NCBI GenBank assembly: GCA_964187785.1
Contig: OZ076409.1
Location: forward strand, 40,178,001-40,242,000
Length of the DNA stretch: 64,000 bases
DNA from: Amphiscolops sp. MND2022
Lineage: Eukaryota
Reading direction: 5' to 3'
Shown: positions 1 to 59,577 of the stretch, one piece after another
Layout of the letters: each line of letters starts with the position of its first letter
How positions within the stretch are numbered: the first letter of the stretch is position 1
Notes under the pieces: model-generated
Told to the model about the DNA's origin: nothing
The model's database searches: none
What the model saw: the letters and a program-made list of their open reading frames with translations, nothing else
Position numbers and translations under genes: made by a program

Positions 1-367
1 TTGCCTCAATTCTAATGCGCAATTCAATAATCCGAGCTATTAAAATTGTCCTCATGGACCACTACTTTCCAATTAACCATCCACGTGTCCTGTCATGTAA
101 TTATAGATTCTTCACATTATGTGTAATTATCAATGCCTCCATTCTACTGTAAAATTCACAACCAAGCCATAAAATTAAAAATTGATATTTAGGGAGTTAA
201 TTGAAAAACGATAGGTGTCATTGAATTGAGTTTGTCACTTTCCAATTCATTCAACATAAAATTCTAAGGAGATCCATTCCAAAGGACAACCATTCAACTA
301 TCATTCACCCACATCGACCAGCTGCTTATTTGCTAAACTCAAAAACAATCTCAAACTAGATCTCAGA

Positions 368-2741
368 ATGTCTGATTCTTTGGGAAGTCTCTCAATTAAC
401 AACAGTGATTTGACCCAATATTCACAAAGCAGCCCCTTTCTAACTCCTATGCAGCCTCCACAACCACTTAACCATGATGCTAATCATCATTTTCATAGCA
501 CCCCTGCACCGCTTCAACATAGTAACTTCTCCTTCCACGAGTCGTACGAGGCCATCCAATCCCGTGCCCGCCTAACTTCTCTCAAATTCTCGACCCAAAA
601 ACACCCCAATGCCACAACGGTTATACTCAAAGCAGGACATCATCCAAGAACTCCAGTGATCAAGCGTGGCTAGAACATTATGAGGCAACTGCGCTTGCTA
701 CTAGCACCGGCACTTTGAAGCGCAGTCTCAATTTCACTGCCAAGACTTTAATTGAACCAGGAACAAAATTGCCCCGACAGGAGTGGTCGGAGAAAGTAGG
801 CCCCCAAATTCAGAAGACAGTTCGGGAAATTGCAGAAGCGTACGACACTTGTGGAGCGCTGACGTTCCAACAACAGTTGACACTCTTCCACGGCATTGTC
901 ACATATCTTTACATGTATGTTGACCCGTCACTGTGATGGCGAAGAGCATTTTAGCTATGACAGTACATGCCGTCGCCCAAGTTGTGTCACAGCTTGACGA
1001 GCTAAGCCAGGACACCATGTACGAACTGAGCCTTGAACCATCTTTGGGTAATTGTTGCATTTTTTGGCAAACATGAAGCAGAACATTGAATGGAAAAAAC
1101 CTTCTTATAATTAGGAAGGGTAATAATGAAGACACACTTCATAAAAAGGATCTGTCATGTTACACTTTTCTAGAATTTTAATCCTTTTGTTTTAGGAAAC
1201 ACTATTCGATCGCAGCATAAAATAATTAAGAGAAGTAATAATGAAGAAACACTTTATGAAAAGTATCTGTCATGTTACACTTTTCTAGAATTTTAAACCT
1301 TTTGTTTTAGGAAACACTATTCGATCGCAGCATAAAATATGCTCTTGGGTGGTGAATGCGATGCGGGTTTATCACCTTGGCGTGAGACCCAATTTCCAAA
1401 GACAATCCCCACAAGTGGTCAAGAGGGCGTTCCCACTGGACGATGGCACCTAAGAGGTACAGACCGAACTTTTCTTCGTCACATCCAAAGGAAACACGAA
1501 TTTTAACCCCAGAAAAATTGCAGAAGAGTTTATGGACAAGGTACAAGAAGTTCAAAAATAGAAATTGAACGGTCACTATGTGCAATAGTTATAAACTTTC
1601 AAAATTGTCTTTTAGTATAGTCGTTTCATAGTTGACTTCTACAATGTTAATTGATTCTTGTGAAAGATTTCGTTGCTCGTTAATGATTGTATTTTGTTGT
1701 AGATGCAAAAGAATTCACGGGAGACAGTGGAAGATGTGCTGCAGGGTTATGCCAACCAAGCACTTGCCCTGCCAACATCCTGCGACGCCGTCTTCAAAAA
1801 GAAGTCACAGGCCACAACGGAGATCTGGAAAAATGTCGACATGATCTGGGCTGCCGCCAACGAGGTCACTGAACGACAACTGAGCGCATGTGTGACAAAA
1901 CGCCTCAATGCGCAGCGTAATGCCCGACAAGTGTTGCGAGCAAAAGATTTCATCACATTTTGCAGCAACAAACGAAACCAGGTCAACCCCACCAGACAGA
2001 GGCTCATTGAGTTCTACAACAAGAACTCCTGGAACACAGAAGAAGATCTCAAAAAAGTTTGTAATTCACGAACCTTAGAAATTAAACAGTTGTTACACTG
2101 CTTTAAAAGACTGCTTGAATAACTATAGGATGAAAAACATAGGTATATCATGTTATTTTTATCCCTTGTTTCAAAAGACATTCAAGATTGTCACTGATCG
2201 CCTGAATCCGGAGGCACTGCAGACTCCATCAGTTGCCCCCCGTCACGATGTCTTGTTCCTGCCAGCCCAGCACGAACAATCGGAGTGCTTCAAGAAGACA
2301 CTTTCCAAACGGTGCAAGTCGCAGCATTGGCCAGCAATCTGCGACGTGCAAGTGAAAGGTCTTGGTCGTGGGGTTATCACGACAGCGAAGATCGACAAAG
2401 GAGAGATTCTGGCTGATTACCATGGGGAAGAAATAAAAGGTATGAAGCTGAACGAGTTCCTTGAAATACCAAGCAACCAAACCGAGTATCTCTTCCAACT
2501 AGGCCAGAAACATCTCATCGACGCTTCCAGTGGAATCTGCAAGGAGCATCCGAACAACAGGTGCCTTGCCAGGTTATTCAACCACAAATCGGCCAAAAAA
2601 GCAAACGTGAAGCCAGTGCTGATAAATATAAGGCCCAACAAAGACGTCCTGGTGTTTGTGGCGAAAACTGAAATCCCTCCCTTCGAAGAGCTTCGATTCG
2701 ATTATGGCGATGAAGAAACGAGGCGACTGTTCGACGAATAA
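368..2741 (+). CDS. SET-domain lysine methyltransferase (SETD8/PR-Set7-like C-terminus); multi-exon, with frameshifts in the 5' half
   Basis: ORF 2115-2741 has GRGV..YHGE..YLF..IDAS..RLFNH..NV..ELRFDYG. Probable exons about 368-1047, 1311-1540, 1703-2057 and 2178-2741 at GT-AG sites. The upstream part aligns with the SET gene at 30.4-32.8 kb (AMTVHAVAQVVSQL vs SITTHAVLQTVPQI; LFFVTSKG vs PFFVNSWG). Confidence 0.8.
1121..1338. repeat. Tandem duplication (about 115 bp) of an intron 3' end and the start of the next exon
   Basis: TAATAATGAAG...TTTTGTTTTAGGAAACACTATTCGATCGCAGCATAAAATA occurs at about 1121-1224 and 1236-1338. Confidence 0.85.
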
Positions 2742-2929
2742 TTTTTTGTCTTGTGATTAGTTCAGATAACAAACAAACTGAATTTTAGTTTTCACGTTTT
2801 TGAATTAAATTCATTTTCAAATTAGATATGTTTCTGGAATTGTTACGTTGCTGGAATAAAAAATTTTCGAGGACTGAATGTGCTCGCGGAGTCGTTACGT
2901 TGTTTGTAAAGGAGTTGTTGGCTTAAAAA

Positions 2930-3450
2930 ACAAGTGTACTACTACCTTCGAATAACAACTAGCAATGGTGTAAAATTGATCTCTAGATTCTTCAAACAAT
3001 GCTTTAAAATTACGTTCTCAATTCTAGAGCGCTTTCTAAGCGCAAGTTGAGCTAATGGTTTTTGAAGAATCCACTAAAAAAGCTGAAACAACTGCTCAAA
3101 ACTAGTGTACTTCTACCTTTGAATAACAACTAGCAATGGTTTAAAATTTATCTCTAGATTCTTCGAACAAGGCTTTAAAATTACGTTCTCAATTCTAGAG
3201 CGCTTTCTAAACGCAAGTTGAGCTAATGGTATTTGAAAAATCCACAAAAAGAGCTTAAACAACTGCTCAAAACTAGTGTACTACTACCTTTGAATAACAA
3301 CTAGCAATGGTTTTAAATTGATCTCTAGATTCTTCAAGCAGTGCTTTAAAGTCACTTTCTCAATTCTTAGCGCTCATTTTAAACGCGAGCTGAACTAATG
3401 GTAATTGAAGAATCCACAAAATTCACTGAACTACTTGCTCAATTTTTGTG
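2930..3450. repeat. 171-bp tandem repeat, about 3 copies
   Basis: Anchor GTGTACT(A/T)CTACCTT at 2934, 3105 and 3276. Confidence 0.9.
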
Positions 3451-5569
3451 TAGTGGAGAATTGGAAAGCTGTCGATAGAGGAAAATTTTTTTGATCGAAG
3501 ATGTCAAATGTCAGTTGATTTGATTACTGGTATGATCAGATAGAATTCACTCAATTTGATGAACATGGCAACGTTTTTTTACATGTATTAATACGCGTAC
3601 AAAACTTTATATATGTGTCCAATGCAACGGCATAATGGGGATGGTGGCGCAGTTGATAAATCACGTGGGTATGTAATGAAGCTTGATGCGTTGTCAATCA
3701 AGGGTTCGATCCCCGCCAATAAACTTCCAGTTGATTCGATGCAGACTACTCTGCATTCCCTCCTCCACTGTATTGAATCAGCAAAAGACATTGTGTTCCT
3801 CTTCACAGTGATAGCCCACATGTAAGGATCACTGCGCCGCTGCATCCCTTTTTGGATCATCCAGATGAACTGAAATTAATAATTTAGATGAAATGAATCA
3901 ATCGGGTTAAAGGTCGATTCTCACATATGAACTTCTAGGCGACTCGATACAGACAACATTGTCGGTATAATTCGGCTTCACAAACAATCGGAATGCCCAA
4001 TTGACGGTTCAATCCGCTTTTGCATGCATCCTTTTTTGATGAGTCGCACAACGAAACTGCATCTTTTTTTAATGCGAATACGAGCAAGAATTTTGAATTT
4101 CGAGAAACTCAAACTCGAACTCATTTTTTGACGCATAATAAACTGCTGCATAATAAGACGCTGCATTTAACTAAATTAACTAATTTTTAATACTCGTTTT
4201 ACAATGAAAATTTCCCAAAATGTTTGAAATGCAATCCTTGATGGTAAGAAGCTGATTGTTTTCAAACAAGCTTTGACGCCCCTTGATTGTATTAGTTGAG
4301 TAAAATTGGTTGATTTCAAACTACACGGTGAATTACGCAGTAGAATTGAGGGACTAATTACTATATACGGTGTGAAGAATCTATAATTGAATGATTAAAC
4401 ATGCGGTAGTGCAAATTGAAGGTAGTGGTACACGAATTTAAACTGAACTTGTTCGTTAATTTTTGTGGATTCTTCATAACATTATGACTGCTATGAACCT
4501 ACGTTTGTAAACTCCGTACAAAAACGGTTTGAATTATTGTGTATTTGAATTATCGAATACAAAATTGATGGTAACCTATGATGGCATCAATCTTCAACTG
4601 AAAAAAAAGAATATGGTCGCTAAACAATTGCTCCCGGAGTCGTTACAAAATATTGGGAAGGATCATTTTTGTATCGAAAAAAAATGAACTAATCGAACTC
4701 CACTAAAACGTACGAAAAAGCCACAAAATTACCTGACATCACGTATTCGGAAGGATCCAAAACACAGCCTTTCTTCTCAACTTCTTCAATGTATGTCGCC
4801 CTATGGTTTTGAAAAGCTATCAATCAAAAACATTATTCTTTGATAAAAGAGGTTGTCATCAATCAATCATTACTTAGACCAAAACAGAAATAGTATACAA
4901 TTGAACAATCAAATTCGTGTTAGTATTTATTTGTGTGCAATACAACGGCATATAGGGGATGGTAGCGCAGTTGATATTTCACATGGGTATGCAGTGAAGC
5001 TAGACGCGTTGTCTACCACCGGATCGATTCTCCCATAGACACTGTTTGGTGACTCGATGCAGACCATCGTTTCACTTCACAGCGATTGGAAGGCATAATT
5101 GAAGATCCAATCAACTCAACTGCGCAACTGCATCCCTTTTTGATGTGAAAAGGATGAATAAGTTGTTGATCGTTATTTTCCTTTACAGCGATAGGAAGGC
5201 ACAATTGAAGATCCACTGCATCCAGGGGTGTTCAATAAACAATTATACCTAAGATAAAATTGAAATGATAAAAATAAAAAAAATACTTCTACACTTAAAT
5301 GAACAAACACAATTATTTTTGAACCTGTTAAAAGAAAAACTATTATTCTTGAGGTAACTAAAACTAACTAAGAACGTTCAATTCAACATATCGTCAGCCA
5401 ATTAAATTCGAACATACAGAAACAGCTTTTGTTGATATCCGTTTTTCGCTGAGAATAAAAATTTTTCTTTTAACAAAAAAATGATGAAATTGTTTATTTT
5501 TCACTATGAAATTAAAATAATTTATTTTTAGGCAACGATAATTATCGAATAAAACATTGAACACCCCTG

Positions 5570-6170
5570 ACTGCATCCCTTTTTGATGTACAAAAAGATC
5601 AGTTGTATATTTCCTTCACAGCGATAGGAAGGCACTTTTGAAGATCCACCGCATCTTTTGATGTAGAGAAAGATCAGTTGATCCTTGTTAATTTCTCTCA
5701 CAGCGATAGGAAGGCACTTTTGAAGATCCACTGCATCACTTTCTGATCTGCAAAAAGGTCAGTTCATTGTTGGTGCTTTTCACAGCGATAGGAAGGCATT
5801 TTTGAAGATCAACCGCATCTTTTGATGTGGAGAAAGATCAGTTGATCCTTGTTAATTTCTCTCACAGCGATAGGAAGGCACTTTTGATGATCCACTGCAT
5901 CTCTTTCTGATCTGCAAAAAGATCAGTTCATTGTTGGTGCTTTTCACAGCGATAGGAAGGCATTTTTGAAGATCCACCGCATCTTTTGATGTGGAGAAAG
6001 ATCAGTCGATCCTTGTTAATTTCTCTCACAGCGATAGGAAGGCACTTTCGAAGATCCACTGCATCCTTTTTTGATCTGAAAAAAGATCAGTTGATTGTTG
6101 GTACTTCTCAATAAGATGGGAAGGCACAATTGAAGGTTCAATCCGCCACAGCATCCATTTTTGATGAAAA
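5570..6170. repeat. 82-bp tandem repeat with alternating A/B units (164-bp higher-order unit)
   Basis: CAGCGATAGGAAGGCA at 5619, 5701, 5783, 5865, 5947 and 6029; degenerate copies near 3806, 5079 and 5186. Confidence 0.9.
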
Positions 6171-8379
6171 CAGTGATGTCCATTTTCAGTCAAAATTAAA
6201 AAATATAAACTATCAATTCAATATGAATTAGCCGAATAATCTGTTTTCGGCACTGATGCATTAATGTACGAAACTCTAAGTTATAAAACATCATTTATTT
6301 GAAACAAATAGCAACTCTCCCTCTCCCACACAAACTTTTTAAAGAATAGGGAAAATAGTATGAACCAAATTTGTATTCCAATTATAAACTGTATCTCTAG
6401 AAATACCTTTAAAATTGAAGGAATCTGGTCTGTAATCAAGTTTTTCTGTTATTACAAGTAGTTGCAAAAACATCATCTTGAAAAGTGTGTGTGTGGGGGG
6501 ATAGTTCCTGAATGGACATCACTGGATGAGAAGAAAGAGAATAAAGATAAACCTGTATAATTGGTATACTGAATTGATTTCAAATTTTACGTCGAATTGC
6601 GCAGTAGAATCGAGGGACAAATTACTTTACATGGTGTGAAGAATCTATAATTGGATAATAAAACATGCGAGAGTGTAAATCGAAAGTATTGGTCCACGAA
6701 TTCAAAATAAATTTGTTCGTTCCATTTTGTGGATTCTTCGCAAAAATAGGACTGCTATGAAAATACTTTTTAAAACATCATGCAAAACTGGTTTGCAATT
6801 TTGATTCAATTGGAAAAAAAAACAAATAAAAAATTACTTTGCCATTTTGTAACTAATGAAATCATACAATTATCTTTGTAATCGCGTTGTCTAAGCGCGT
6901 TAAAAAGAATTTTCAAGTGGTAACTGTATCTTGAATTATCTCGGACCATATGGTACTATTCGATCTCTTAGTTGAACAATTTGTTCAACTAGGCAGGTCT
7001 TTTGTCAACACTATTGTTGATCATTTTTCTTTTAACCGCTACCACATTCCCCCGCCGGCAATTGACGGTTGGGAATTTCTATTAATAGGCTATTTCTAAT
7101 AATTAACATGGGAAATGTTATTTGACACTAATTTTGTTTTTATGTTATTTGCACTTATGGTATTTGGTACGTAATCATCCGTTCCGTTGCCCTTTTGGAG
7201 TCGTTACCTTAAACTAAACATTTATATTTAGTCCTGTTATTATCATGCTCATGGAGTCGTTACGGGGAAGTCCCAAATAACATAAGAGCAAATAGCATAA
7301 AATTAGTTCAAATAACATAAAACTGAAATGGGTTTCACTAAACACGGAATTTGAAACTAATTTCATTTTCGTGTTCTTCGACACCAATTTTGCCTCTGCT
7401 ATTTGCACTTGTTATTCGGTACGTATTTGTCGTTAAATGTTTCTAAACATTTGTGCTATATCCTTTTTTCATCGCGCTCATGGAGTCGTTACATCTGACT
7501 AAACGTTTTTTTTCTATGTCATATATTCATTGCGAACAAATTGTACCAAAAATAAAACACTTGACTTAACTTACTCGAAGATTGAGTTTGTTTGATTGCT
7601 CAAATTGAAGGTTTGCAGTTATCTTGTTGTCTTCAGGAAATTCTTGAAGTCTTCAGGAGATTCAGAAAACGACTGATTGTCAGCAGCAATGGTTGTTAAT
7701 TAACGTTACTAGATAAAGCGAGGGATTTTGAAGTTTGTTTACATGACGCACAAATTTCTGCGCGTCATGGTCACGTGACAAAAAGTTCATCTAATTCCAA
7801 GTACATGTAACGTTTTTGGATCAAGCTAGATATTTTGTTTACATAAGGCACTAAATTATGCGAGTCATGGTCACGTGACAAAAAGTTCCTTAAAGATTTG
7901 TAGAGATTTTAGAGATTTGTAAAGAACGAGGGAAAAAAGAGTGAAGAAACGAGTGAAATCAAGAAGAACGTCCAATTTCATAAATCCTTTTTGAACCATG
8001 CCAAGACTGAACGAAATTTTCACCGAACGGAACCAAAAGTATCAGAGATGATGTGACGTCATAAAGAACTATATTGAATTTATTGTATAACGAATGACAT
8101 CCATACAATCTATTTGAACGCTCCTGGAGTCGTTACAACAATAACTGTTTCATTAAATTGATATAAAGTTTTTCGAGTTTAACAATTGGAGGGAGGACGG
8201 TATTTGATACATTTTCTTTGCTCTTGGAGTCGTTACAAATTTATCAATACAAACACAGGTTTTTTGATTATTTGAATTATCAATACAAAAAACGTTAGGA
8301 AACGAAGTTTGTTCATTAGTAGTCTGCGCAGTTGAAGTCTTAAGTTGAACAAATTTGGGCGAGGGATGTTGGTATAGAA

Positions 8380-8870
8380 AAAAAGTGTACTACTACCTTT
8401 TGAATGCTTTAAAGTTACGTGTTCAATTCGAGAGCGCTTTCTAAACGCAAGCTGAGCTAAGGGTATTTGAAGAATCCACAAAAAGAGCTTAAGCAACTGC
8501 TCAAAACTAGTGTACTACTACCTTTGAATAACAACTAGCAATGGTTTAAAATTGATTTCTAGATTCTTCAAACATTGCTTTAAAGTTATGTTCTCAGTTC
8601 TAGAGCGCTTTCTAAACGCAAGCTGAGCTAAGGGTATTTGAAGAATCCACAAAAAGAGCTTAAGCAGCTGCTCAAAACTAGTGTACTACTACCTTTGAAT
8701 AACAACTAGCAATGGTTTAAAATTGATTTCTAGATTCTTCAAACAATGCTTTAAAGTTACGTTCTCAATTCTAGAGCGCTTTCTGAACGCGAGCTGAGCT
8801 CATGCTATTCGAATAATCCACAAATTTCACTCAACTAACTACTTGCTCAATTTTTGTGTGCTGGAGTTTT
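8380..8870. repeat. Second array of the 171-bp repeat (first unit internally shortened)
   Basis: Anchor GTGTACTACTACCTTT at 8385, 8510 and 8681; same sequence and orientation as 2930-3450. Confidence 0.9.
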
Positions 8871-8995: not shown

Positions 8996-11900
8996 TTACT
9001 TGAAAGGAGTCACATATGAGCCGTCTGGTTGCTCTTCTGCTCTTGCTCTTTTGCGCGAAAGCTTCAAGGAAGTAATCAAAGATCTGTAATCACCGTCTAA
9101 TGCTCCGGCGTTTCTTTGTCTCTCAAATAATGGGCGTTGATCGTTGACACAAGCCCGCTTGATTGTATCATTACATGACATCACGTATTCGGAAGGATCC
9201 AAAACACAGCCTTTTTTTCAACATCTTCAATGTATGTCACCTTTATAAATTTGAAATCAGTGGCGGCAAATTCCCTGCATATTCTGGCTGTTCCTTGAGC
9301 TGCTGCTTTTTTCATTGTTTTCGATGCAGCCGGTTTTCGTTGAGTTGTCGACGTACATGTGTCGCTGTCCGATTCAGAAGCTGCGCATTGCTCACTCCGC
9401 GATGCTCTGAGTAATTCAGTGTCGTTTTTTAACACAACAAAACAATTTGGGGTTGAAGAATGACGCTTAGATAGACCAAGAGCTTTGTCCTTACTCAACA
9501 CCTCCCCCCCAAACGGGTAATTGTATCCTCTAGTGCTTTTGCAGTAGTTCCAGAGAAGTGTCCAACCACGTGAAACCGAAGTCCACTCAACAACCTGCAT
9601 GAATCACGAGTGGCACCTATTTCTACAATGACAGGCTTGACAACATTTTTGCAGATTTCAAAATAAGTTGTAGTTGGCTCGTATTGTTTTTGAAGTTGGG
9701 TAAACAAATCGCTCACTGCTATTTTTTTGTGTTTCGAAACTATGTCGAGATAATGGCAGTAAGAAAAAAAACCTTCATAGAATAAAGGATCAGGGTTATA
9801 CAGTTTCCCTCCGCCTCGCATCGTTTTTGTTTGAAAATCCTTGTGTGCGTGATGGTTTGATTTTTCCATTGCCTCACACATGTGGTGCCAGGGACTACGA
9901 ACAAATCCTGCCTGCATTATTTCAGGTACTAGCATCATTTTCAATTTATAGGGTGTCAGACCTTCTTTTCCGGAAAAAAGAAGCAGCGATGACTGGTAGT
10001 AGGTCTCTGACCAGAACTTGAATTGCTCCATGTCTAGTCCGTGTTTGGAGGACCGCAAAATGATGGCACATTTGTTTAGACTTCCTTGTAAAAGATTTGC
10101 GCAATCGTTTGTTGTGAACTGGTCAAATTTCTCTAGATAAGGGTGCATTTTTCTGAGAACTGCAAAAGCGTTGGTGACAGCACGTGTAATTTCTTTGTCT
10201 GTGTCGTTGTTTATGTTCTCAAAAAGGATTTCTTTTCCCCATACGTTTTCAAAATGGTTGGGAATATCTTGCCCAAGTTCATCTTTGTCAGCGATAGCAA
10301 CTAGCGCTGAAGTTCCTGACAGCGACACAGGTCCAACAACCCCTTTTTTCAAATCAGATCCTTTCACTTGCAGGTCAAACTGGAATCTGGGTTTTTTCAT
10401 CGCCCTTCGAGTGCAGTTATCTTCCAACTTTTGTAAGGCCACTTTGTATAGCGGTTTCTCGTTTACGATTTTTTGTGTTGCTTTGCGAAGGTCACTCTCT
10501 ACACACCTTGTGATCATATGCGTAACGTCTGGCATGACACATCTTATATCCTTAAGGTACACTAGTGAATTTTGTGGAACTTCTTTTCTGAAAGGCGCTT
10601 CTAGATCGTGGCGCAATCCAGTATTTTTATCCACATCTGTAGGCAAAAATTTTTCAGATCCCACATATAAAGCCAAATCAGACGGGTACAGGTTCGATGC
10701 ATCGCTGTCTATAGCCAGTATGAGACGATACAGAAAAGGGTTGTCGCCGGAACATGTAACCACTGCCCCTTGTGTGCTTAACTCTTTTGTTTGCATGTAC
10801 AGCCACCCCGTCTCCTGTTTTCCAGCTATATCTGGCCCCAAATTTTGCTCCAGTACGAATCTGCTATCTTTTCCTCGGAACGCTAAACAAAACGACTTTA
10901 TAAAATACTTATTAGAAGAATTCGGTTGCGAATATCTTACAAAATTGTTTAGATTGTGTACATTGAATGGATTTCAATTCATACGATGAATTGGGTAGTA
11001 GAATTGAGGAACTAATAAGAACACATGATGTGAAAAATCTATGATTGGATGAGAAAACATGTGAAAATATAATTTGAAGGTAGTGGTCATGAATGTATAC
11101 TAATGTCCTTATTTAATGGAATCTTCAAAACAGAAAACTACTAGGGTAATTGATAATAAAAAGCAAACTGCTAACTTACCACTGAAGCAAAACGTTATGC
11201 TTGATGACTGTGCTGTGATTTTCTCCGAGAAGTCCTGTAAAATTCGGAAACACATCCTTGTGTGATCATTACCACCAATTTCACAGCCGTCACCCCACAA
11301 ATCAATGTTCAGCCCCAATATCGTTTCTCTTCCGTAAAGAATCCAGGCTGCAAAGTTGACACATGATACCAAATCACAACGGAATCCTGAGAATGTGGCT
11401 TCAGGCTTACATACGGAAATGAAGTTTTCCATGATACGACTCTGGTATCTCTGGACTGCACGGTAGGATGGTACGATGTTTTGGAGTTTTCCTGTTTCAT
11501 TTATTTTCAAATTCGAAGAGATAGTGAACAGCAAGTCTTCTGCTTTGCCTGGTTTGAGGGAAATAGCAATACTGGAAGTTATTGCTTCTCGCGATTGCAA
11601 GTTTGGGAAAAGTTTTTTAATAACAGACTTCAGATACTCTGGTTGTTTGCTTTTGGAATACTGAAGGATGACGTCTATGAGAGAGTCGAAACTGACTTTG
11701 TTTCTTCTTGCGTGTAGCAGAACATACTTCCAATAAATAATTGGCCTTCTTTGAAGTCCAACTGCTCCTTTCCTTCGCGGAACTATGCTAGTAGTAGCAA
11801 GTTTGTTTCCTGGCTCAATTGACTCATCTGTTTCAGTTTGTGTGCCAGTTGTTCTGTGTGCAACTTGTTTTAGTAGAGCTGATTTTACCTCTTGGTTACA

Positions 11901-12224
11901 TGTCGGAAACAAATCTACGCCCATCAGTTCAATGATGAGTTCCCTTCGAGCATTTGTCCCTGGGAGATTTTTCCCACCACTCAGAACGATCAGTTTCATC
12001 GTATGTGCCTCAATGAAAACCGAGTGTTTCTTCTGAGTGTCTTTTTTCCATTTAATGATGAGATCTTCGGATTTTAACGAGGTTCCACAAATGACATGAT
12101 TTGTCAATTTTGAAGCTCCTTGATATTTGTTAGTCTCATTAACTAGGGAAATTTTTTCTATCAGGTTATAATCAATATATTGAATAATGTTTATTACTAA
12201 TGAATTCTCGTTCCAAAGCTCCAT
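8996..12224 (-). CDS. RAG1/Transib-like DDE transposase with C-terminal BRCT-like domain (copy A)
   Basis: Exon 12224-11180, intron 11179-10883 (G|GTAAGT...TTTAG|CG), exon 10882-8996 with two -1 slips in homopolymers (about 9505 and 9215). Motifs in RAG1 order: PSYRAV, IDLWGDG (first D), QSSSITFCFSAFRGKD, SGDNPFL (second D), MPDVTH, SLSGTSA, LTPYKLK..VPEI, CEAMEKSN (E). Then LLSGLRFHVVGHF..TITRLGGEV..FIKVTYIEDVEKKGCVLDPSEY (BRCT-like). Confidence 0.75.
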
Positions 12225-12693
12225 TCTGTTCGATTTTCAAAGTTGCTCAGATTCAATTCAATATGATGAGTGGATCAGTTGTTGTTGATTGATGTGTTGC
12301 TTTTTATGGCATTCTGTGATTACACATTATGTTGAAGGAGATTATAAGAATGTTGAATTTGAAGGAGAAAAAGAGTTCGACAGCTTGTCCTAATCCTAAA
12401 AGTGGGGACGAACGTTCAGCTTATCAGACAGACTCAGTTATTAACTAGATTTCATTTTGATTGAATATTGATATTGATGCGTGTAAAATTTGAGTCCCAC
12501 GCCTTCATTCTAAGTTTGAGCTTACCGTCGAGTATACTTCGAGTGAGACTCAATTTTACTCTCAGTGTAAGACTCAAATTTTACACGCAGTTTTTAAAAC
12601 TTCTCAAGGCGTATCATTTGACTTTGAATTTCGCTAGTTTGCACTATCAACAATTCAGCTTCCCACATTGCAATTCAGTGTTCAATTTTCACA
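12225..12693. promoter_or_regulatory. Probable bidirectional promoter between transposase A and partner A
   Basis: Head-to-head ATGs at 12224 (-) and 12694 (+). The same arrangement recurs at 41238-41719. Inferred from position only. Confidence 0.45.
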
Positions 12694-14211
12694 ATGCTGT
12701 CGAAACAGTTCGAAATAAATGAAATTGTCGATGCTATCGACGAATGTTTTATATGGTGGCTAGCAGAGATTATCAAATTTGATGGGGAATGGGAAGTAGT
12801 TGTTCGCTGGATAGAATTTGGAAATAGAAAATCGACAATAACCATCCCCAGCACTATCAGAAAAACATCAGAGAAATGGAGTATCCGGAAAACAAAAGTC
12901 ACCCCTCAATCATTGCCCTGTAAAAGAAGCCGCGATAACAAAATTCAGCTGGATTATAGAGCCAAATTTCAACCCCGTGGTGACACAATAAGGTTTCGCC
13001 AAGGAGATACTGTGCAAAAAGGCTTCGTCTTCATCAATGACACTGTACTCCAAGAAATGGAGATACTTGAGGAAGACGAATTCAAAAAATGGGAAAAATC
13101 TACCGATGAGTACGATAAACTGACGACTGCTTTCAGAATACTGCGAATAAGATACAACGACCTGCGGAGATTGGCAGCGCCAGTGAACACTCCCAGTGGC
13201 ATGGAGGAGAAGGACGATTGCTCAGATGAAAGTGACGACGAAAGTATTCAGATGAGTCAGCCAAAAAAGCAGACAAAGGTCGCGGGGCACAACTTGAAGA
13301 AGAAAACACCGGTCAATATGATCTGCATGATACCTGTAAGTCTAACGTATTGAAACTAAATTTCTATGATCGTCGTTTGAAACAGATTATATTACACGCT
13401 CATGGAGTCGTTACATTTTTACAATAGAACTGATGTTTATTTAGAACTATACATTCCTGGGGTCACTACAATGTTAACTTGGAAATTTTAGGTTCGTTTG
13501 TTTTTTTGAAGAAAGTAATTATTGGGTTTTGTTTCAGAAATCTACCGACGAGGGTAAGCTCATCTTGTTTCCATGTGTGAATGGAATATTGCATGAAGGT
13601 GGCAGAGTCCTGGACCACTGTGGCCAACCAGCTATAATTCGCAGCCTCAAGCTGATATGGAGGAAAGAATAACCCCTTGTTCTCGTTACAATGGCTTCGG
13701 AGCAATGCGAGGACGTTTTAATCACAATGCCCTCGACGAACGTTGTGTTCCAGGAGGAGAATTTCATGAGCAACATAACTCATGAAAGTTTGATTGGAAG
13801 CGTCGAACACCCTATTAGTAGGGTGTGCTCGCTGTTTGCAGCCGTGAAAAACGCCGTTGGAATCGCCTTGTTGTCGCGGACTGGGTATGCAGGGATCTTA
13901 TGTGTTGCGAATGATCTTTCCACAACAGCCCTTGAAATAGAAAAGCCCTTGAAATATCAATTCCCGCAGACAAAAAAGGATGCCATGAGTCATTGGACAC
14001 TGTGTTAGGCAAACTGTGGGACAGGAAGGCTGGCGGTTATAGCCAGACCGACAAGTTCATCAAGTCGATGAGATTCATGATAAAAAAATCGTTTGCTGTA
14101 TCGTTGATAAAATGCAGCGTCGTAGTAATCGGCGGAGTTTACCCAGTCACGAAGTACAGGGAGATCATTCGACAAAATATGGCTGCAGATATGGAAGAAA
14201 ACCTCCTGTAG
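12694..14211 (+). CDS. Transposase-partner protein A, N-terminal Tudor/Agenet-like domain, rest unknown
   Basis: FEINEIVDAIDECFIWWLAEIIKFDGEWEVVVRW fits a Tudor/Agenet barrel pattern. Exon 12694-13335, intron to 13537, exon 13538-14211 with frameshifts. Aligns with 41720-43295 (FPCVNGI/VPCENGI; WDTVLGKLWD/WDSTLGRQWD; FIKSMRF/IIKSLKF). Confidence 0.7.
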
Positions 14212-16015
14212 ATCACGATGTATTGCAGTCAATTCTTTTTAAAACTTTTTAGTTTTCAAAACTTTTAAAGGTTGTTTTTTAATTGGATTCAAATCCTTTT
14301 GTGATGCATGGAATCTTTATGAAGTAAATTATTCTTATCGTTTGAAAGTTGAATAAACTATCCTTGAAATAAAATATTCTCCTCGTTTGAAAGTTAAATG
14401 TTTGAAAAAGTTATTAAAAGCGATATACGCTCCGGGAGTCGTTACATTGTTAGTTTTGAAATGTTGTTTAAAGTATAAATGTTTCAACTACAAACACTGA
14501 AAATGACTTTTCAATTTGAACCTACGTCTCATTCTAACGAAATCTTTTTCTTTTCAACTCTTGCGTTCTTCAACTCTTGAAAAAAATCAACCGGGTTGAA
14601 ACTGAACTACAATGAGTCACAATATACAAAATTTAACAAAAGAATCAAGTAGCAAAAATCAGGCACAATGAGAAAATAAAAGATCTCCGAAGGTCAACGG
14701 TTTCATCAAAATGGCATTGGCTGTGGCTGTCATTTCGGGTGATTCACCTAACATGCCATAACAAATCAGCCATCCCAAAAGTTATCAAGTTGACAGGGTC
14801 TGAAACAAAAATTATACAAATCAAAAATCTCTATTTTCCAGATCAAAACGTATCTTATCGAACAAAAATTAATTCTCGAACTTAGAAAGGTCCTGAATGG
14901 AATTCTTATGCTTTCATTCAAGTAGTTTGGTCATAAATAAAAACAGCCAAAAGGAAGTTTCGAAAAGAAACATTACTAATGAACGTAACTCTACATTGAC
15001 AGTGAAATTGTAATTTGAACGTTGAAAGATGATTAACAGCTGCGAGGTCATACCTATTTGCTTTTGAAGAATCCAAGAAGAATTTTGAAGAATCCAGATA
15101 ATTTTGAAGAATATACGAAGTTACAAAGAATCGCCACAGCAGTTCTTAGGCGTGCTACCATATCTTATAATGAATGTGAAGATTCCACAAAATTAATTGC
15201 CTTGTGAAGAGTTCAAGAAAATTTGTGAAGAATCCAGGAAAGCTTGTGAAGAATCCAGAAAACTTTGAAGAATTGACGAAAATCGAAGAATCTTCACATC
15301 TATTGTTAAACATGTGAATCATATATTGTTATTAATGTGAAGAATCCACAAAACGTTTTCCTCATTTCTTGAAAATTTCATTTTTGCACTACTAATATTA
15401 TTGTCTGAATTCTTCCGTCCAACTGGCGGCACTTTGAAGTTCACTTTTTCCTCATTTCTAGAAAACACATTTTGGTAGTCGCAAAAGCCAATTTTCCTGA
15501 ATTCTTGAAAAACACAAAGTTCCCTGTTTGGCGTCGTAATGTTACTTTACCATGCTGTCAGCAGGTGCCTATAGAAGTTTGCATATCTCGAGTGGTGCAA
15601 AAACGTACCACAATGCTATTCCGGGTTAAATATCCCGGAAAGCGATCATGTCTACTTGCCTTACCTTAAACAATGCTCTAAAAACCATTGCATCAAACTA
15701 CTTATATGCAGTACACTTGTCATTCTACCACCGCCAGTTTTGTTGGACGTAGAACAGGAACATCAAAACGAAATCTCTTGACAATACTCAAGGCAGGAAA
15801 AAGCCGAGGCGAAACTTTTTATCTAGCCTTCGAAGCCTTTCGGAAAACACCACACAAGATTTAGATATTCGGCTGCAATATAATATTTCAATCGACCGCT
15901 GAACGCGATAATATCGAACTCACTGAACTCTTGGTGCTTGAATGATTGTCCCTAAGGCTTAGGGTACAGAACGTACCTTTACCACATATTGGGGTCGGTA
16001 TGCAGAATCATCGTA

Positions 16016-16487
16016 CTACCAATTAGATAATGAAACTATGCTTGCTATGTGAACCACGAAAACGGAACCCAGAAGTTTCACTCATCGGAATTGTAATACT
16101 TCTGAACAAGGCGCTGAAAAGATTCCTGTCAGCTTTTCTGTCAATTGTTCGGAAAAAAGCTTTCGTTGTGTAATCAAATCTAAACTATGGATGCTGCAAA
16201 TCTTCAGCAAAAATTTGTGCGTTTATTAGTCAAGTACGGCCAGAATCTGCCAATCAAATCCAGCTGACTCGAATTAGACAAATTTTAGTTGTTAATAGGT
16301 TAATTAATAGCATCCATAGTTTAGAAGATTTGATTACGCTACGCTCTTTTTCGAACAATTGACAGAAAAGCTGACAGGAATTGTTTCAGCACCTTGTTCA
16401 GAAGTATTACAATTCCGATGAGTGAAACTTCTGGGTTCCGTTTTCGTGGTTCACATAGCAAGCATAGTTTCATTATCTAATTGGTAG
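16016..16487. mobile_element. Foldback MITE with long (about 180 bp) terminal inverted repeats, flanked by TA
   Basis: TA|CTACCAATTAGATAATGAAACTATGCTTGCTATGTGAACC... and its reverse complement ...GGTTCACATAGCAAGCATAGTTTCATTATCTAATTGGTAG|TA. Confidence 0.85.
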
Positions 16488-17939
16488 TAAGATTCAAGAC
16501 GCTTTTCTATTAGCGCTAAGATTGAAATTGAGTGGCATTAGTCATTAATCTGAGACGAATTTGATAATATAAATGTGGAATGAAATGAACCTCGGGTGAA
16601 ATGAATTTGGGGTGAAATGAATGTGGATTGAATTGATTGAAATGTTTTCCGCCTAGTATTTCAGACCAGCTTGTTTCGGAGAGTTGTTTTCGACAAGTTT
16701 TACTATATTCATTGGGAGTATTAAACCTTTTAGGACAAGATAATAGGAAACCCAGTGAAAATTTCAAACGAAAATGTTCGAGCAGAAGAGCTTGCTCCTG
16801 AGATGACAATGGTGGTATCTAATGGTGGTATGACAATGGAAGACGAGTAAAGTAACTGTCATTAGGGTCGGAGAGCTAATAATTCAGACTGCCATCCATA
16901 TATCCAACGCCGACTTCAACTTCTTCACATCAAAAGTGAGAACGAAATGACTGGTAAAGACGTTCAAATCATCCTTAGTTGAAATTGTGATTACGTAAAA
17001 AGGCTTTATACTGAATGATTGACAGACAATTTGAAATTTTTCTGTACCTTTATTTCGAATATTGCGGCTTCGAAGCATAATTTTTCACTTGGTGAACCGA
17101 AAAAACAGAACTCACTAAAATTTGCGTCTTCAAAATCGTTTTATATGTACACAAGTGTAGAAACCACCAAAAATCTTTCAATTTGTTTTGTTGCTCTTGT
17201 TAAGTAATCACCACATTTTCAAGAAAAAATCGTTCGAACCTTTAGAAATTGTCCAAGCAGTCTTCACCAGTCTTGATCAGTCTTGCTTCCAAGAAGAGAC
17301 GCTGAATCGAATGATTGACAGCAGTGTTCAAGGTTGTTTTGAAACGTTTTTTTGAGACAATGTACAATTTCGAGAGCTCAGAAGTTTTCATACGTTCCGT
17401 TTTTTAACCCGTTCACCTATTAACTCTATATCAGTGCTGGAACTGTCCGATGAAAATTGGCGATTGAATCACTCGAGATTGGCTTTGCTGAACAGTGGCA
17501 TCGCTGGCCACCCTTTTTTGAAGCCACTCTTGTCGCAGGCTGCCGCCTGTGAGGGAAATTGGTACACAATATTATAGAACTACCACAGGGCCTTCCCACG
17601 AACCATCCCCCATGACTAAATGGCCAGAAGACAAATGTTGGACACAAAACACTCAATAATTGAAACTATGAATGTATGAGTATTTATGTTTTGTACAAGT
17701 AAACACTTGACGTTACTGACAGTCAGGTAAGAAACGAGTACAACTGGCTGCGTGTCCAATTTACTGGATGCAGGCCTTGCAGCCAATCACAAGACGCGCT
17801 ACATATTTGCAATACTCTACTTATTTCCTACGCAATTTTAGTACGATGCAGTAAATAGGCCGCTTCCGACGTTCTGCTGATTAAAAGACAGCAAAGAAAA
17901 ACAAAGAGCCCAAGTGAGCTTTAGTGTTGAAATGGAGAT

Positions 17940-18140
17940 GGATCTTTTCTGTTAATTCCCCCCCACCAATTTAATTCCCCCCCAGTTAAGCGGTCAAGTG
18001 AAATTATCACTGAATAATTAGTAACAACCAATCAATTTGCAGTATTTTATAACTCTAACTGCAACTGAAACACATCGCTGATAGTGGTGGGGAATTAAAA
18101 TTTATGCGCTTACTGTGGGGGGAATTAACAGAAAAGATCC
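17940..18140. mobile_element. 201-bp MITE with 8-bp target-site duplication (Merlin- or hAT-type)
   Basis: TIR GGATCTTTTCTGTTAATTCCCCCC / GGGGGGAATTAACAGAAAAGATCC; ATGGAGAT on both sides (17932-17939 and 18141-18148). Confidence 0.9.
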
Positions 18141-18649
18141 ATGGAGATTTTGTTCAAGTAATACTGAATAATATTGCTGTGTTTCTATTTAATTATATTC
18201 TAGACCAATTTTGACAATTAGTCGACATGTATCCTCCCCCAATATATATTTTTTTACCACAAGTTATGTTTAACGTTCGGAATATAGAGTCCATCGTGTA
18301 AAATCAGTTCTTGTACTTGTATTTCTGCTATTTTGACATAAAGTAGCCTTATGAGATCACATGTTGCTTTGTTGCATATTCCGTCTTTATCTGCGGTAGC
18401 GGCGGGGCCTTTTGAAGTTTATATATAGAACGTGGTTGTCATCATGTTGCTATTTTCAGAATACCCTGATCTATTATTTGTTCATGATCATCCAAATTAG
18501 GAGTGTCACTCCACCAAGAGTGAGAGTATATACCAAGATTGTGAAGGCCTCAGGACACAATTAGATAGTACTGGTTTTGTGAAACTACTGTTGAAACCGT
18601 TAGTTCAAATATCAGAAACAGGAATTATGAACTTTTCTTCCTTTATATT

Positions 18650-23082: not shown

Positions 23083-25994
23083 TCAAGATTGAAAGTCTTT
23101 CAACAAGCTTCTTTTTTCTTCGAGTTCGAGTGAACTCGGGCTTAGCAATTGAAGTTTGGCTAACGGGTAAAAATACATATGCCAGGATACCAATATTAAC
23201 ACAGCTACTGCTAGCATGCCCGCATGGAAGCCAATGTAGCCTGAAAGAATTCCACCGAATACATAGGCTCCAATAACGCGCCCAAAGTTGTAAGTAAACA
23301 TCAACAAGTTAGTCGTTGTCAATCGAACATTGTCTAGCTCTCTGAAACCCTCCAGTAGAGCAATTTTTTCGATAATCCTGAACGCTGGAACGAATGCAGC
23401 TGCGACGTGACAAAAGCCCTCATAACCCAGGAGTAACAAAATAGTATAAGGGGATTGTAGCATTGGCATCAAACTCACACATGATAAAGCAACGTATCCC
23501 GCAGAAGCGAGCGGTGTAAAAATGAGAGAAGAGTGGGGTGAGTAGCCTTTGTCGCCCAGAAATCCAACCAGGAAAGCACCCAGTGTGTAAGTAGAACCAA
23601 AACAGAGGAAGTAGTAACCACTGAGCTCGCTGCCAATTCCCAATTTTTCCTGCAGGAAAGAAGCTAAGGTGACGCTGATGCACCCAGAAGCAGCCGCCAT
23701 TGTCAGGGTGGGAATACAGGCACAAACTATAGTGGGAGTGCGACAAAATGACGTCAGCGAGCAATTTGTCGAGTCTGAGTCATTTGCAGGGTTGAACAAA
23801 TTGTGTTTTTTAAAACTCGAACTTTTTTATTTTTTGATTTTGAAACTACGTTAGTCTTGAACGTTTATTCGCAACCGTCTTTTGCAATCATTCACAATTA
23901 TTCACTGTTCATTCGCAAGTCAACAAACAAGGCAAAACGAATTACAGTGCCTCACGAAAGTGTAACAATAGATAGGCATATTTCTAATAAAGGGTATTTT
24001 AGTTCATAGACAAATGTTATGTTAGAAACAACCATATAATAAAACAACCATACTCTTCTCATGTTGTTTTCAATCACCGGAAGTTGTTTTTCTTCACGCT
24101 TTTTTCTGGTTGCACGTTGAATCATAAAACATTTATTGTTACAATTTCGTGTGCGCCATTACAAAAAGCAAAAACCACTTCCTACATTATTTCAACTGTT
24201 AAATTTCCGTTTACAATTTTCATTCTTTGTCACTCACAGTCTCTAATTACTTGTTTCTGTTATGAAAGTTATACCCATCTCAACCAAAACGCAGATTTTC
24301 GAGTATGTAGCGGAGGGTTTATCTACAAGGCAAATTGCCAAGAAGGTGCCATCTGTTAGTCATATGACGGTGACCCGATTGAGGAGCGAGCATTTCAATG
24401 GCCTTGCAAAACCAAAAGCAGGTCGTCCATCAAAATTAACTCCATATGACAAAAGAAAACTCGTCCGAGACATGTCGTCAGGAAGGATACAAACAGCTGT
24501 TGATGCGGCTAAAGAGCTCTCAAATACAATGGAAACACAATTGCACCCTGAAGCTATCCGGCGAGTATTGAGGAAAAGTGGTTTGAAAGCAATCAAGAAA
24601 AAGAAGAAACCTTTCTTGAGTAGAAAACACAGACAACAAAGATTGGAATTCGCACGGAAGTATTCCAACTGGACACCAGAAGATTTCAAGCGTGTCATAT
24701 GGTCTGATGAAACCAAAATAAACAGATTTGGTTCCGATGGGCTCCAGTGGGTGTGGAAAAAGCCTAAAGCACCATTATTGGACTGCCACGTGCAGGGTAC
24801 GTTTAAACACGGAGGTGGAAGCCTGATGCTATGGGGATGTATGACTTCTTTGGGAATTGGTCAGGCGTGAGCTGTGGGAACGGGTGCAAGACGAGTGGAA
24901 CAAAATACCAGTTGAGACAGTTCAAAACCTTATCGATAGTATGCCCAAGCGCATAAACGCTGTTTTGAAGGCTCGGGGTGGTTATACTAAATACTGAAAC
25001 ACTGTTCCTGTTCTTATATTCTGTTTTTTTAAGTGTATAAAAACGTTTATTCAAATTCATTTTCTAAAACATAACCACACACGAAATTGTAACAATACAA
25101 TTTTTCAGTAGAGTGCTTGTGAATACATGTAAAAAACTCGAAAATATAAACCAAAACAATATACATTAATGCAACGTGTTTAACAAACATATTGAAAGCT
25201 TACTTAGTTTAAATGCTGTACCCTTCTGAGAGAAAAAGAAGATCTCACTTTTTTAAAAGTCTATTGTTACAATTTCGTTAGGCACTGTACATAGCGCTTC
25301 AAAAGCTAAATTATGAAATTTTATTTGGCCTAACGCCAACAGTTAAACACAAAAACTCTCGAGTCTTTTCTTGCTAACCCTGTCCTCTTTCTTTTGGAGT
25401 ATCTTGCCTATTGTTCCTAGCTGCGCTTACCAGAGGCGCAGCGGACACTACAGTAATTATGAATTCTACGGATCCCACTAGCGTGAAAGGAAGTAAGAAT
25501 CCTCCTATAGAATACAGCATACTTCCGACAGCAGGTCCAATCAACAAACCTGCTCCCATAGAGGCTTCTAACAAACTGGTGACTTTGGCTTCTCTGCCGG
25601 GGAAGAAGTTAACAAAAATAGGGTTGCCTGTGGTGAAAAGCATCGAAGCTCCGCACCCATTAATAACTTGTACGATGAGAAGTGCGGCTATGAGACAATG
25701 GCCCTCAAAAAGTAAAGGAACGTAGCCCAATAGAACACAAAAAGAAGCAGAAACTGACGCACCGATTAGGAAGATGTAAACTTGGTTGGAGGGAGTGAGG
25801 ATGAACGAAAGTGCGATGATTGCAACGAGCTTGGCCAGGTCGAAGGCTACCATTATGATTGAGACCAATTGAAGGCTCAAACCATTCGCCATGGCCTCGT
25901 TTGGGAAAAATGGGGCCAGCAACGAGGAGTTCATGCCTTTTCCAAAGAAAAGACCAGCTGCCATGAATAATAGCCAGTAATTAGTTCCCTCCAT
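23083..25994 (-). CDS. MFS transporter, SLC18B1-like (probable host gene)
   Basis: Two hydrophobic multi-TM halves (ORFs 25374-25994 and 23083-23799). Motifs SLLAPFFPNEA and GAGLLIGPAVGSMLYSIGGFLLPF match the SLC18B1 subfamily. Probable donor G|GTTAG near 25379; acceptor not pinned down. Confidence 0.8.
23945..25287 (+). mobile_element. Tc1-family transposon, internally deleted, IR/DR-type ends
   Basis: TA|CAGTGCCTCACGAAAGTGTAACAATAGA ... TCTATTGTTACAATTTCGTTAGGCACTG|TA. Inner copies of the same motif lie near 24133 and 25078. Confidence 0.95.
24262..24990 (+). pseudogene. Tc1 transposase, truncated
   Basis: HTH, GRPSKL, KKPFLS, WSDETK and KHGGGSLMLWGCM are present. The sequence then jumps out of frame to the C-terminal ELWERVQDEW..SMPKRINAVLKARGGYTKY, so the second D and the E are deleted. 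Confidence 0.92.
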
Positions 25995-28724: not shown

Positions 28725-28873
28725 AACTCATTTCAATTTTGTGTTTTGAAACTAAGTTTTTTGTTGTTTGTTCCTTATGTTATTTAGGAAATCACCAAGT
28801 TGGTGATTTCCTAAATAACATAAGGAACAAACAACAAAAAACTTAGTTTCAAAACACAAACTTGAAATGAGTT
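28725..28873. repeat. Near-perfect palindrome, 74-bp arms, 1-nt loop
   Basis: Centre ATCACCAA-G-TTGGTGAT at 28799; one mismatch (28737/28861). Confidence 0.95.
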
Positions 28874-32760: not shown

Positions 32761-33456
32761 GTACTATGCAATGATGCTTTCATTCGGTTTAAATGGAGTC
32801 GAAAAACTTTCAAACGTTTCGTTTGGAGCAACATAATTTGTCACAGCCGGGCTAGTCCCCAAGACAGTGTAAGAGAGGGCTTTCTCGTGTTGAGGAGGGT
32901 TCATCGTTATGTAATGAGATTGTTTTCTAGCTACTGTTTGGATTGAATGTGAGTGCTCAATCCTTTCCTTGATCGGTCAAAATTCGAACTAATTCAAATA
33001 CGCTTCGTCAATCAACTGTGGTATTTTATAATTAAAGAAAAATGGTGATCTTCGAATTAAATAGTACATATATGATAATTATTCATTTCTGATAATGAAA
33101 TATTTAATTATTGAAAGAAGGAGTACATACCGTTGGTAATAGTTTTGCGGATGTGCTATTTAGATTTGGATTAAGATGAGCTCATTTAAGGAGGCTTTTC
33201 GAATCAACTGTGGTGATAATTACTTGATGAAGTGCGAACCTTCAATTATCGTTTCAAAATAGGGGATAAAAACCGAAGTATGAAATAACTTAAGCTAATT
33301 GGCATAAAATGAATTCAACTTTCGCCCATCCGTTTCCGAGTTTGAATACAAGAAAAAGCCATGTATTTCTGAGTTTCAAATTGCCCATGCGTTTCCGAGT
33401 CTTAAATGGCGTTATCATCTTGATGATCTGTTGGGATATCTGAAAGAGAATTTAAA

Positions 33457-41237: not shown

Positions 41238-41719
41238 ACTATCGTTTCCATTCTTGAAATGCGTCCGCTGGTTGGCAAAGCGTTTGACAAAAAATTATAA
41301 AATGATCGTGTTACGTTTTTGATGTTCCGTGCTGAAATTATATCGGAAATAAATCGAGTAAATTAGCGTTTTCACACTCACGTGGATTTTGAAATGCGTC
41401 TGCTCGATCGATCGAAAAACGTTTGACAAAAAATTATAAAATTATCGTGCTACGTTTTTGATGTTCAGTGCAAAAGTGTCTGGAGGTTTATTGTCATTTA
41501 AAATGCGTCTGACAATTAATTATTATGCGTCTGACAATTAAAACTCATCTGTATGTAACGACTTGGGTCGATCAAACTCACTTGATAATCATTTGTCCCG
41601 ATAACGATTTTATTTGCTCAAACCTGCTTGATAAACATTAGTGGCAAATGCAATACTGAAAATACTCGTTTGAGAAAATAAACTTCTTGAAAAATAAAGC
41701 ACTAGTTTCATTAATTGAA

Positions 41720-59295: not shown

Positions 59296-59577
59296 GATGT
59301 GTAGTCGAGACTTGATACAACTGTTGTTGTTAAACTTTAGTAGTAGTCTTTTGTGCTTCTTTTATTGCAGCCTTTGTTTATTTGATTGTAGTCGTTGCCT
59401 TTTGGCTATTTTTATTTTGCTGGATTTTAAAATTAACTGATAGTGATTGACTCCCCAGCAAAATAGTAGAAAAGAAATTGGAGTCAAAAAAATCAAGAAA
59501 AAGAGGCCGTAGTATGCCAGTAATTAATGTCGTCAGGTCGGTTTGATCTGGACACTTGATAGTGCTCTTTTCCCTTT

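Follow-up and report, generated by a model that had tools for sequence, protein, structure and literature searches.

The gene at positions 12694 to 14211 of the window (the whole stretch of 64,000 nucleotides of Amphiscolops sp. MND2022 DNA that was analysed), here called the partner gene, belongs to the conserved core of a family of giant cut-and-paste DNA transposons that is young and abundant in this genome. It is cargo of the same element as the transposase and not one half of a fixed head-to-head pair, and the original prediction, of a co-regulated cofactor possibly analogous to RAG2, missed that the full elements measure 16-23 kb and carry a SET gene and a JmjC gene as well. Judged by its substitution pattern, the folded domains of the encoded protein are under purifying selection. 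The role that we favour, and to which we give about an even chance, is that of a tandem-Tudor reader within an element-borne kit for writing, reading and erasing histone methylation, which would keep the element active.

Two elements of one transposon family

The window holds two elements of this family, and their features are listed below.

Element 1
260-2741, plus strand: SET gene of several exons, with the SET domain at 2079-2741; placed inside the element by copy comparison
9000-12224 (lower coordinate approximate), minus strand: transposase of two exons, with frames 11109-12236 and 9495-10973 and a frameshifted BRCT tail
12225-12693, no strand: intergenic stretch between the two start codons, delimited by the ATG positions
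12694-13335, plus strand: exon 1 of the partner gene, an open frame of 214 aa, comprising predicted barrel 1 (aa 1-67), a basic linker, predicted barrel 2 (aa 86-157, with G[FY]V..ND) and an acidic linker (aa 158-214)
13336-13537, plus strand: putative phase 0 intron of the partner gene, GTAAGT...TTTCAG
13538-14211, plus strand: exon 2 of the partner gene, with the PC.NG segment and a C-terminal domain with [WL]D..LG..WD; stop at 14211
7238-8236, 13389-13414, 14430-14446 and 15062-15357: sites of short repeated motifs
15520-15541, minus strand: right terminal inverted repeat, CATTACGACGCCAAACAGGGAA on the minus strand

Element 2
27052-27074, plus strand: left terminal inverted repeat, CATTACAGTGGGGTAACCGGCA
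30398-32525, minus strand: SET gene, broken
33427-36160, plus strand: zinc-finger/JmjC gene with a 244-bp repeat array; JmjC exon at 35519-36160
37066-41153, minus strand: transposase with BRCT tail
41720-43295, plus strand: partner gene, with exons at about 41720-42471 and 42676-43295

Copies of element 1 on other contigs are 99.8% identical to it over 20 kb, and its homology to six other copies stops sharply at position 15541. The left end of element 1 was not found within 40 kb to the left of the window, nor was the right end of element 2 up to 20 kb beyond it. Among 47 stretches examined for ends, 26 had both and 21 had no end pair. All 26 two-ended copies start with CATTAC; the inverted repeats match perfectly over as many as 26 bases, and a 2-bp target duplication flanks 25 of the copies, while duplications of 3 or 5 bp occur in none; the duplicated sites are varied and A/T-rich and follow no obvious rule. 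A core set of four genes (transposase, partner, SET and JmjC) is present in each of the 11 mapped elements, the JmjC gene being recognized by a local profile in nine of these and by tblastn in the remaining two (N and P), and at least four gene orders occur among them. Candidate matches in the genome number 500-720 per gene, and per search the best 150 of 500-600 candidates were scored. The family also includes two sub-families of non-autonomous elements, 8-9 kb long, which retain both ends and have 2-bp duplications (L183, L184, L186, L188, L189, L190; L199, L200): one has lost the transposase and kept the SET exon and the partner, and the other has kept the front part of the transposase. The six transposase-less two-ended derivatives measure 8.6-8.9 kb, and five of them have a broken partner exon 1.

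The copy of element 1 in the window contains an internal duplication of about 9.7 kb that includes the SET gene, is flanked by 171-bp repeat arrays and is located in window positions 1-8800 and the 14 kb to the left of the window. Short dispersed motifs, GGAGTCGTTAC and GAAGAATCCA, are repeated throughout element 1, most densely towards its end, and are possible binding sites for an element protein. The partner intron holds a single copy of GGAGTCGTTAC, at 13389-13414.

Four residues of the transposase are invariant (D330, D410, H485 and E708, numbered as in the reference row), with a spacing that we consider to resemble that of Transib/RAG1; the acidic triad together with the D..H, TPY and E..E..N motifs likewise has what we take to be Transib/RAG1-like spacing, from which D410 and E708 are presumed to be catalytic. 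A BRCT domain ends the transposase in every lineage read (window 9000-9600 and 37066-37700, both on the minus strand), with a Pfam BRCT match in 7 of 42 members and a best E value of 7.6e-7 (BRCT_2); such a tail is, to our knowledge, unusual for a cut-and-paste transposase. RAG1/Transib identity was considered but is not supported. Searches returned no RAG1 or Transib match among PDB sequences at E<=10 or in Pfam at E<=1, although the Pfam RAG1 model matched nothing, controls included, and is therefore uninformative, and the 92 overlapping rows of the profile searches (40 + 52) contained no name or RAG1 domain. The zinc-binding motifs are missing from most members, CxxC occurring in 4 and H(3-4)H in 6 of the 33 members with both residues. 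Because the C(2)C and H(3-4)H motifs are missing and no RAG1 or Transib entry was matched, the transposase is not filed as RAG1-like, and by sequence it fits none of the tested superfamilies cleanly. The CMCT clade, as defined in the part of its description available to us by 5'-CA..TG-3' ends, a duplication of 2-5 bp and C(2)C and H(3-4)H motifs (PMC12730594), shares with the present element the CA..TG ends and a 2-bp duplication, whereas the present transposase departs from that clade and from RAG1 in lacking both motifs, in matching no RAG1/Transib profile and in carrying a BRCT C-terminus.

The SET gene of element 1 matches the Pfam SET model at E 1.8e-12, and 14 of its 15 PDB matches are KMT5A/SETD8 (best E 9.1e-9). 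The JmjC exon of element 2 matches Pfam JmjC at E 4.7e-8, with the metal-binding HxD...K...H pattern seen in the alignment, and the JmjC gene of a sister copy matches KDM2A at E 1.7e-18 and PHF8 at 2e-17. By their closest relatives, then, the SET gene appears KMT5A/SETD8-like and the JmjC gene KDM2/PHF8-like. KMT5A writes H4K20me1, and the closest relatives of the JmjC gene erase H4K20me1, H3K9me1/2 or H3K36me2. The SET gene also has a long conserved N-terminal part, with a TELFFVNS.GK..F block, common to all lineages read (L089:3597-5636, minus strand).

The partner gene and its product

The partner gene of element 1 stands head to head with the transposase, whose ATG is at 12224, across a gap of 470 bp, and the stretch 12225-12693 is likely to be a bidirectional promoter of both. 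Its putative splice sites are a GT donor at 13336 and an AG acceptor at 13537, and the intron was placed there because splicing yields 442 aa in six sister copies. The window copy itself is a pseudogene, in which a TAA at 13670-13672 truncates the spliced product to 258 aa, as against 442, and 13 nt are deleted from exon 2 after position 13944. Among the 15 closest copies, the intact 442-aa product is encoded by six (L002-L006 and L008), products of 356-440 aa by four, and five are broken early or unscored. The sequence blocks first read in the gene (G[FY]V..ND, an acidic linker, PC.NG and WD..LG..WD) are present, with the reservation that the first W of the last motif is an L in element 1, and PC.NG and WD..LG..WD are the best-kept columns across 149 outside relatives.

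A two-exon gene had been described some 470-480 bp from the transposase start in both elements, and this stands for element 1 but not for element 2, in which the best in-frame ATG of the transposase (41153) lies 567 bp from the partner, an ATG at 41251 (469 bp) being out of frame. A 1-nt frameshift near 41900 interrupts the partner of element 2, and the partner copies in both window elements are broken. Direct BLASTP between the exon-1 frames of the two gave nothing significant (best E 0.033), yet both match the same intronless copies and have in common the anchors W62, R65, K66, F101 and N115 and the C-terminal columns P, A.K..VG and D..LG..WD; judged from these alignments, the gene at 41720-43295 is homologous to the partner of element 1. 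The position of the intron differs between the two elements. Across the family (L142, L148, L151, L166), the partner has no intron in lineages D and E, one in ABC, F, H and GI, and three in MNP, and the single intron of ABC, F, H and GI sits at three or four different places.

An AlphaFold2 model of partner residues 1-161, built from a 16-row alignment, has a mean pLDDT of 83.6 and two beta-rich domains, and the single Tudor-like N-terminus that had been proposed is accordingly two predicted barrels in the model. The proposal of a Tudor-like fold was borne out for barrel 1, predicted to be a small antiparallel beta barrel (pLDDT 86-93 over aa 1-50; VIA Z 8.0-8.8). When compared by VIA with the Tudors of TDRD3, UHRF1, PHF1, PHF19, PHF20 and SMN, barrel 1 scores Z 7.9-8.8 (for TDRD3, Z 8.8 and rmsd 1.7 over 55 residues; for PHF20 Tudor2, Z 8.0 and rmsd 1.7 over 53), scores that VIA flags as borderline near 8 and that compare with 6-6.8 for KOW, SH3-like and other non-reader barrels. 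The rmsd is mostly below 2.4 over 51-59 residues and falls to 1.1-2.0 over 51-57 with many Tudors. Foldseek ranks tandem Agenet, Tudor and MBT readers first, at E 1.7e-3 and weaker, with none below 0.001, and barrel 2 gives a weaker match, with a VIA Z of 6.0 to the knotted Tudor of Esa1. A profile of the N-terminus found only two matches among PDB sequences, at E 0.09 and 0.6, to chains 2LDM/3P8D, which we take, also from the title in VIA, to be Tudor2 of PHF20, of a family of H4K20me readers; the match was lost with a deeper profile of the whole protein, and Pfam Agenet was reached at E 0.015 at best, in 3 of 16 members. No repeat relation was detectable among the three beta-rich segments of the partner.

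The candidate cage of barrel 1, mapped through the alignment and not from coordinates, consists of D16 in first place, W22 in second and W39 in third, with F42 three residues on. Tudors that read methyl-lysine have a cage of 3-5 aromatics and 1-2 Asp. Of the 20 full rows, 18 have D16 and all have an aromatic residue at 39 and at 42, across sequences only about 25-30% identical. Since position 22, which corresponds to Y29 of PHF20L1 Tudor1, is Glu in 14 of the 20 rows and Trp in four, and the positions of Y24 and Y54 are not aromatic, most lineages would have only two cage aromatics, while the window's lineage has three. Barrel 2 has no cage, and a basic stretch lies between both barrels. As far as the available text of one study goes, Tudor1 of PHF20L1, a binder of mono- and di-methyl-lysine, has an Asp-for-Trp and Trp-for-Asp swap, and the tandem Tudors of the same protein bind nucleosomal DNA without methyl preference, their DNA binding being sub-micromolar (PMC13285377). 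A methyl-lysine pocket kept in barrel 1 is plausible because the Asp/Trp swap is that of PHF20L1 Tudor1, yet the indifference of those tandem Tudors to methylation tempers the comparison.

The C-terminal domain of 228 aa follows an acidic linker of about 55 aa, and its model, of low confidence (pLDDT 60), contains long helices. A search of 1.84 billion representatives returned 169 outside relatives for it at E<=0.001, and the Pfam, PDB-profile and Atlas searches returned no family for it; with the whole partner protein, Atlas gave low leads only (0.75-0.76), to KIF2A-like N-terminal and Tudor_3 clusters. A GNAT reading of the domain is unsupported, with a VIA Z of at most 5.6 on the pLDDT-60 model and hhalign values against 12 host GNATs of 0.07% for the set, 1.2% for GCN5-like and 12.9% at best, over 12 columns. 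Matches of the C-terminal model to the TDP2/EEP fold were also rejected (TM 0.22, rmsd above 11). Viral contigs contained no relatives of the partner, a weak match in a metagenome (42 aa, E 3e-4) was set aside, and ten clusters that were looked up carried no names.

Linkage, common inheritance and selection

Among 40 loci picked by the partner, transposase sequence lies within the 10 kb fetched for 28, and the transposase core is 8-11 kb off for 11 more, so that by eye 39 of the 40 have a transposase within 11 kb, L084 being the remaining one; all 11 loci picked by the transposase contain the partner. In lineages A-C, a transposase core is listed within 15 kb of 58 of the 79 partner matches, and a partner is listed for 64 of the 68 transposase matches. 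Element DNA surrounds all 21 partner matches that lack a listed transposase, and there is no domesticated solo copy among them, with the best 150 of 500-600 candidates scored per search. The partner is tied to the transposase through the element that carries both, but not through the head-to-head arrangement, which occurs in three of six lineages. In ABC, H and MNP the gene opposite the partner is the transposase; in D, EF and GI it is the SET gene. In lineage D, the transposase is convergent with the partner and 8-10 kb away, in EF it follows the partner in tandem, and in D and GI the two are separated by the JmjC or the SET gene.

Trees of the partner, transposase and SET proteins from 16 elements share all strongly supported clades and disagree on where D, H and MNP branch at depth. 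Mantel correlations for the same 16 elements, raised by near-kin pairs, are 0.94 for partner and transposase, 0.94 for partner and SET, and 0.91 for transposase and SET. On this phylogenetic evidence the three genes are inherited together and vertically. The proposal of a dedicated, co-regulated transposase partner in the manner of RAG2 is not supported by these comparisons, the head-to-head order being specific to some lineages (3/6) and the tie to SET equally close (r 0.94).

Values of dN/dS in sufficiently diverged pairs are 0.06-0.19 for barrel 1 (five pairs with dS above 0.2), 0.11-0.20 for barrel 2, 0.11-0.23 for the C-terminal domain and 0.26-0.74 for the linker; in close pairs the constraint is weaker (0.28-0.60).

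Possible roles and comparable systems

In the histone-methylation kit that we favour, the KMT5A-like SET enzyme would add a single methyl group, giving H4K20me1 if it acts as its closest relative does, and the KDM2/PHF8-like JmjC enzyme would erase marks, which by its closest relatives could be H4K20me1, H3K9me1/2 or H3K36me2. The tandem barrels of the partner would bind marked nucleosomes on the element, the C-terminal domain and whatever binds it would thereby be brought there, and the element would be kept transcribed and active against host silencing. The partner is likely to share a two-way promoter with the gene that it faces, be it transposase or SET. The nearest sequence match of the N-terminus, PHF20, belongs to a family of H4K20me readers. 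In active gene bodies, Kmt5a and Kdm7b oppose each other on H4K20me1, according to the portion of that report at hand (PMC5542855). If both enzymes of an element acted on the same mark, they would work against one another, so they may have different marks. A narrower version, which we hold to be doubtful, has the KMT5A-like writer, the PHF8-like eraser and the Tudor reader form a self-contained H4K20-methyl circuit, in which the reader would dock on the BRCT-tailed transposase and the mark would keep the element active and direct cutting or repair; its pairing of Tudor and BRCT recalls 53BP1.

Other roles were weighed against this kit. The partner might, like RAG2, be a subunit of the transposase complex, with its C-terminal domain binding the transposase and its barrels steering excision or insertion to marked chromatin. 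This is compatible with the chromatin kit and is consistent with the presence of the partner together with a transposase in all autonomous lineages examined, with the head-to-head order in ABC, H and MNP, with the congruent trees and with a transposase that is without the zinc-binding motifs seen in its presumed relatives and might need a helper; we nevertheless judge it rather unlikely, given that the partner faces SET in D, EF and GI, lies 8-10 kb from the transposase in D, is equally tied to SET, shows no Kelch or PHD pattern and belongs to an element whose varied, A/T-rich target duplications follow no obvious site rule. A somewhat smaller chance is given to a DNA anchor, in which the barrels and the basic linker would bind DNA or nucleosomes independently of marks and bring the SET and JmjC enzymes to internal repeats in a VANC-like manner. 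The reduced cage of most lineages, the basic stretch between the barrels, a PWWP-ssDNA complex among the top VIA rows (Z 8.2-8.4), the richness of the elements in short repeats and the sub-micromolar DNA binding reported for the PHF20L1 tandem Tudors (PMC13285377, in the part available) all agree with it. Against it stand the retention of D16 and of the aromatics 39 and 42 at about 25-30% identity and the zinc-finger/JmjC gene, which would be the more obvious DNA binder.

The barrels could also act as a decoy in the piRNA pathway, binding methyl-arginine on PIWI or Sm-type proteins and dampening small-RNA silencing, as the Tudors of TDRD3, SMN, TDRD1 and Krimper among the top VIA rows (Z 7.1-8.8) might suggest. 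Those rows tie with methyl-lysine readers, however, and while a methyl-arginine Tudor pocket consists of four aromatics plus Asn, the pocket here is acidic (D16, E22), the model has no SN-like extension and the gene travels with histone enzymes, for which reasons we regard the decoy as improbable. That the gene is a neutral passenger captured from the host is largely refuted and retains only a very slight chance: the transposase-less derivatives carry the partner too, but its first exon is broken in five of those six, and purifying selection, presence in all six lineages and vertical inheritance speak against a passenger.

RAGL transposons, in the accessible text of their description, have a convergent RAG1L-RAG2L pair, a six-blade Kelch plus PHD in RAG2L, CAC ends and 5-bp duplications (PMC7204232). 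RAG2 and RAG2L are, like the partner, second genes accompanying a DDE-type transposase inside inverted repeats, with a product that may read methyl-lysine. The original view that the partner is unrelated to RAG2 was upheld, in that no kinship was detected, two small barrels standing in place of the Kelch and no PHD being present. By positive assignment and by length, the Kelch core is replaced by two barrels (pLDDT 84), an acidic linker and the 228-aa domain, and in contrast to the PHD finger, the kept columns of 149 relatives contain one conserved Cys and no conserved His, with Pfam also returning no PHD. Partner and transposase are never adjacent and convergent as in the RAGL pair (divergent in ABC, H and MNP, tandem in EF, separated in D and GI), the 5-bp duplication and the CAC, RSS-heptamer-like ends of RAGL and Transib contrast with 2 bp (25/26) and CATTAC here, and two further chromatin genes are carried. 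With PHF20 and PHF20L1 the partner has in common two N-terminal tandem barrels, an Asp at the first cage position and an aromatic residue at the W50 position; it differs in that the Y24 and Y54 positions are not aromatic, the Y29 position is mostly Glu, barrel 2 is cage-less, there is no PHD finger and the gene is transposon-encoded.

Among transposons with epigenetic cargo, HarbingerS and oomycete MuDR elements carry SET genes and fungal transposons carry TET/JBP genes, in the part of the source available (PMC12730594). All of these are, like the present family, DNA transposons with an enzyme that acts on epigenetic marks, but as described they carry one modifier each, whereas here writer-, eraser- and reader-like genes occur together and are fixed across lineages with transposases about 40-55% identical. 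VANC of the plant MuDR elements VANDAL is an accessory factor that counters silencing via DNA methylation, in the passages available of two reports (PMC5735166, PMC10398659); large DNA transposons, an anti-silencing accessory gene and internal repeats are features that liken VANDAL to the present elements, by description only. The literature searched contained no transposon with SET, JmjC and Tudor genes, and Repbase Reports, subscription journals and supplements, which lay outside the scope of the search, may record the family. It may be an unclassified lineage, with a variant of transposon-borne epigenetic cargo. Transposons with a single epigenetic enzyme or a single anti-silencing factor are already in print; if the proposed kit is real, a transposon would control its own chromatin through a full set of histone-methyl tools, retained despite deep divergence and changes of gene order, and since intact young copies are abundant, the steps of that kit can be tested.

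Some further features were recorded around these elements. Adjoining one element at another locus is a 589-aa frame with a zinc finger (L099:8109-9875, plus strand), whose R...H..R...H...Y spacing we take to be that of tyrosine recombinases. At window positions 23083-26012, an element with 30-bp inverted repeats at 23943 and 25289, presumably Tc1/mariner-like, splits a minus-strand gene that looks to us like an MFS transporter. Positions 56220-63419 contain Gypsy-type pol frames on the minus strand and long plus-strand frames, the first with a BED-like zinc finger, and small inverted-repeat elements or palindromes lie at 16010-16493, 17938-18142 and 28725-28873, with arms of 151, 26 and 74 nt.
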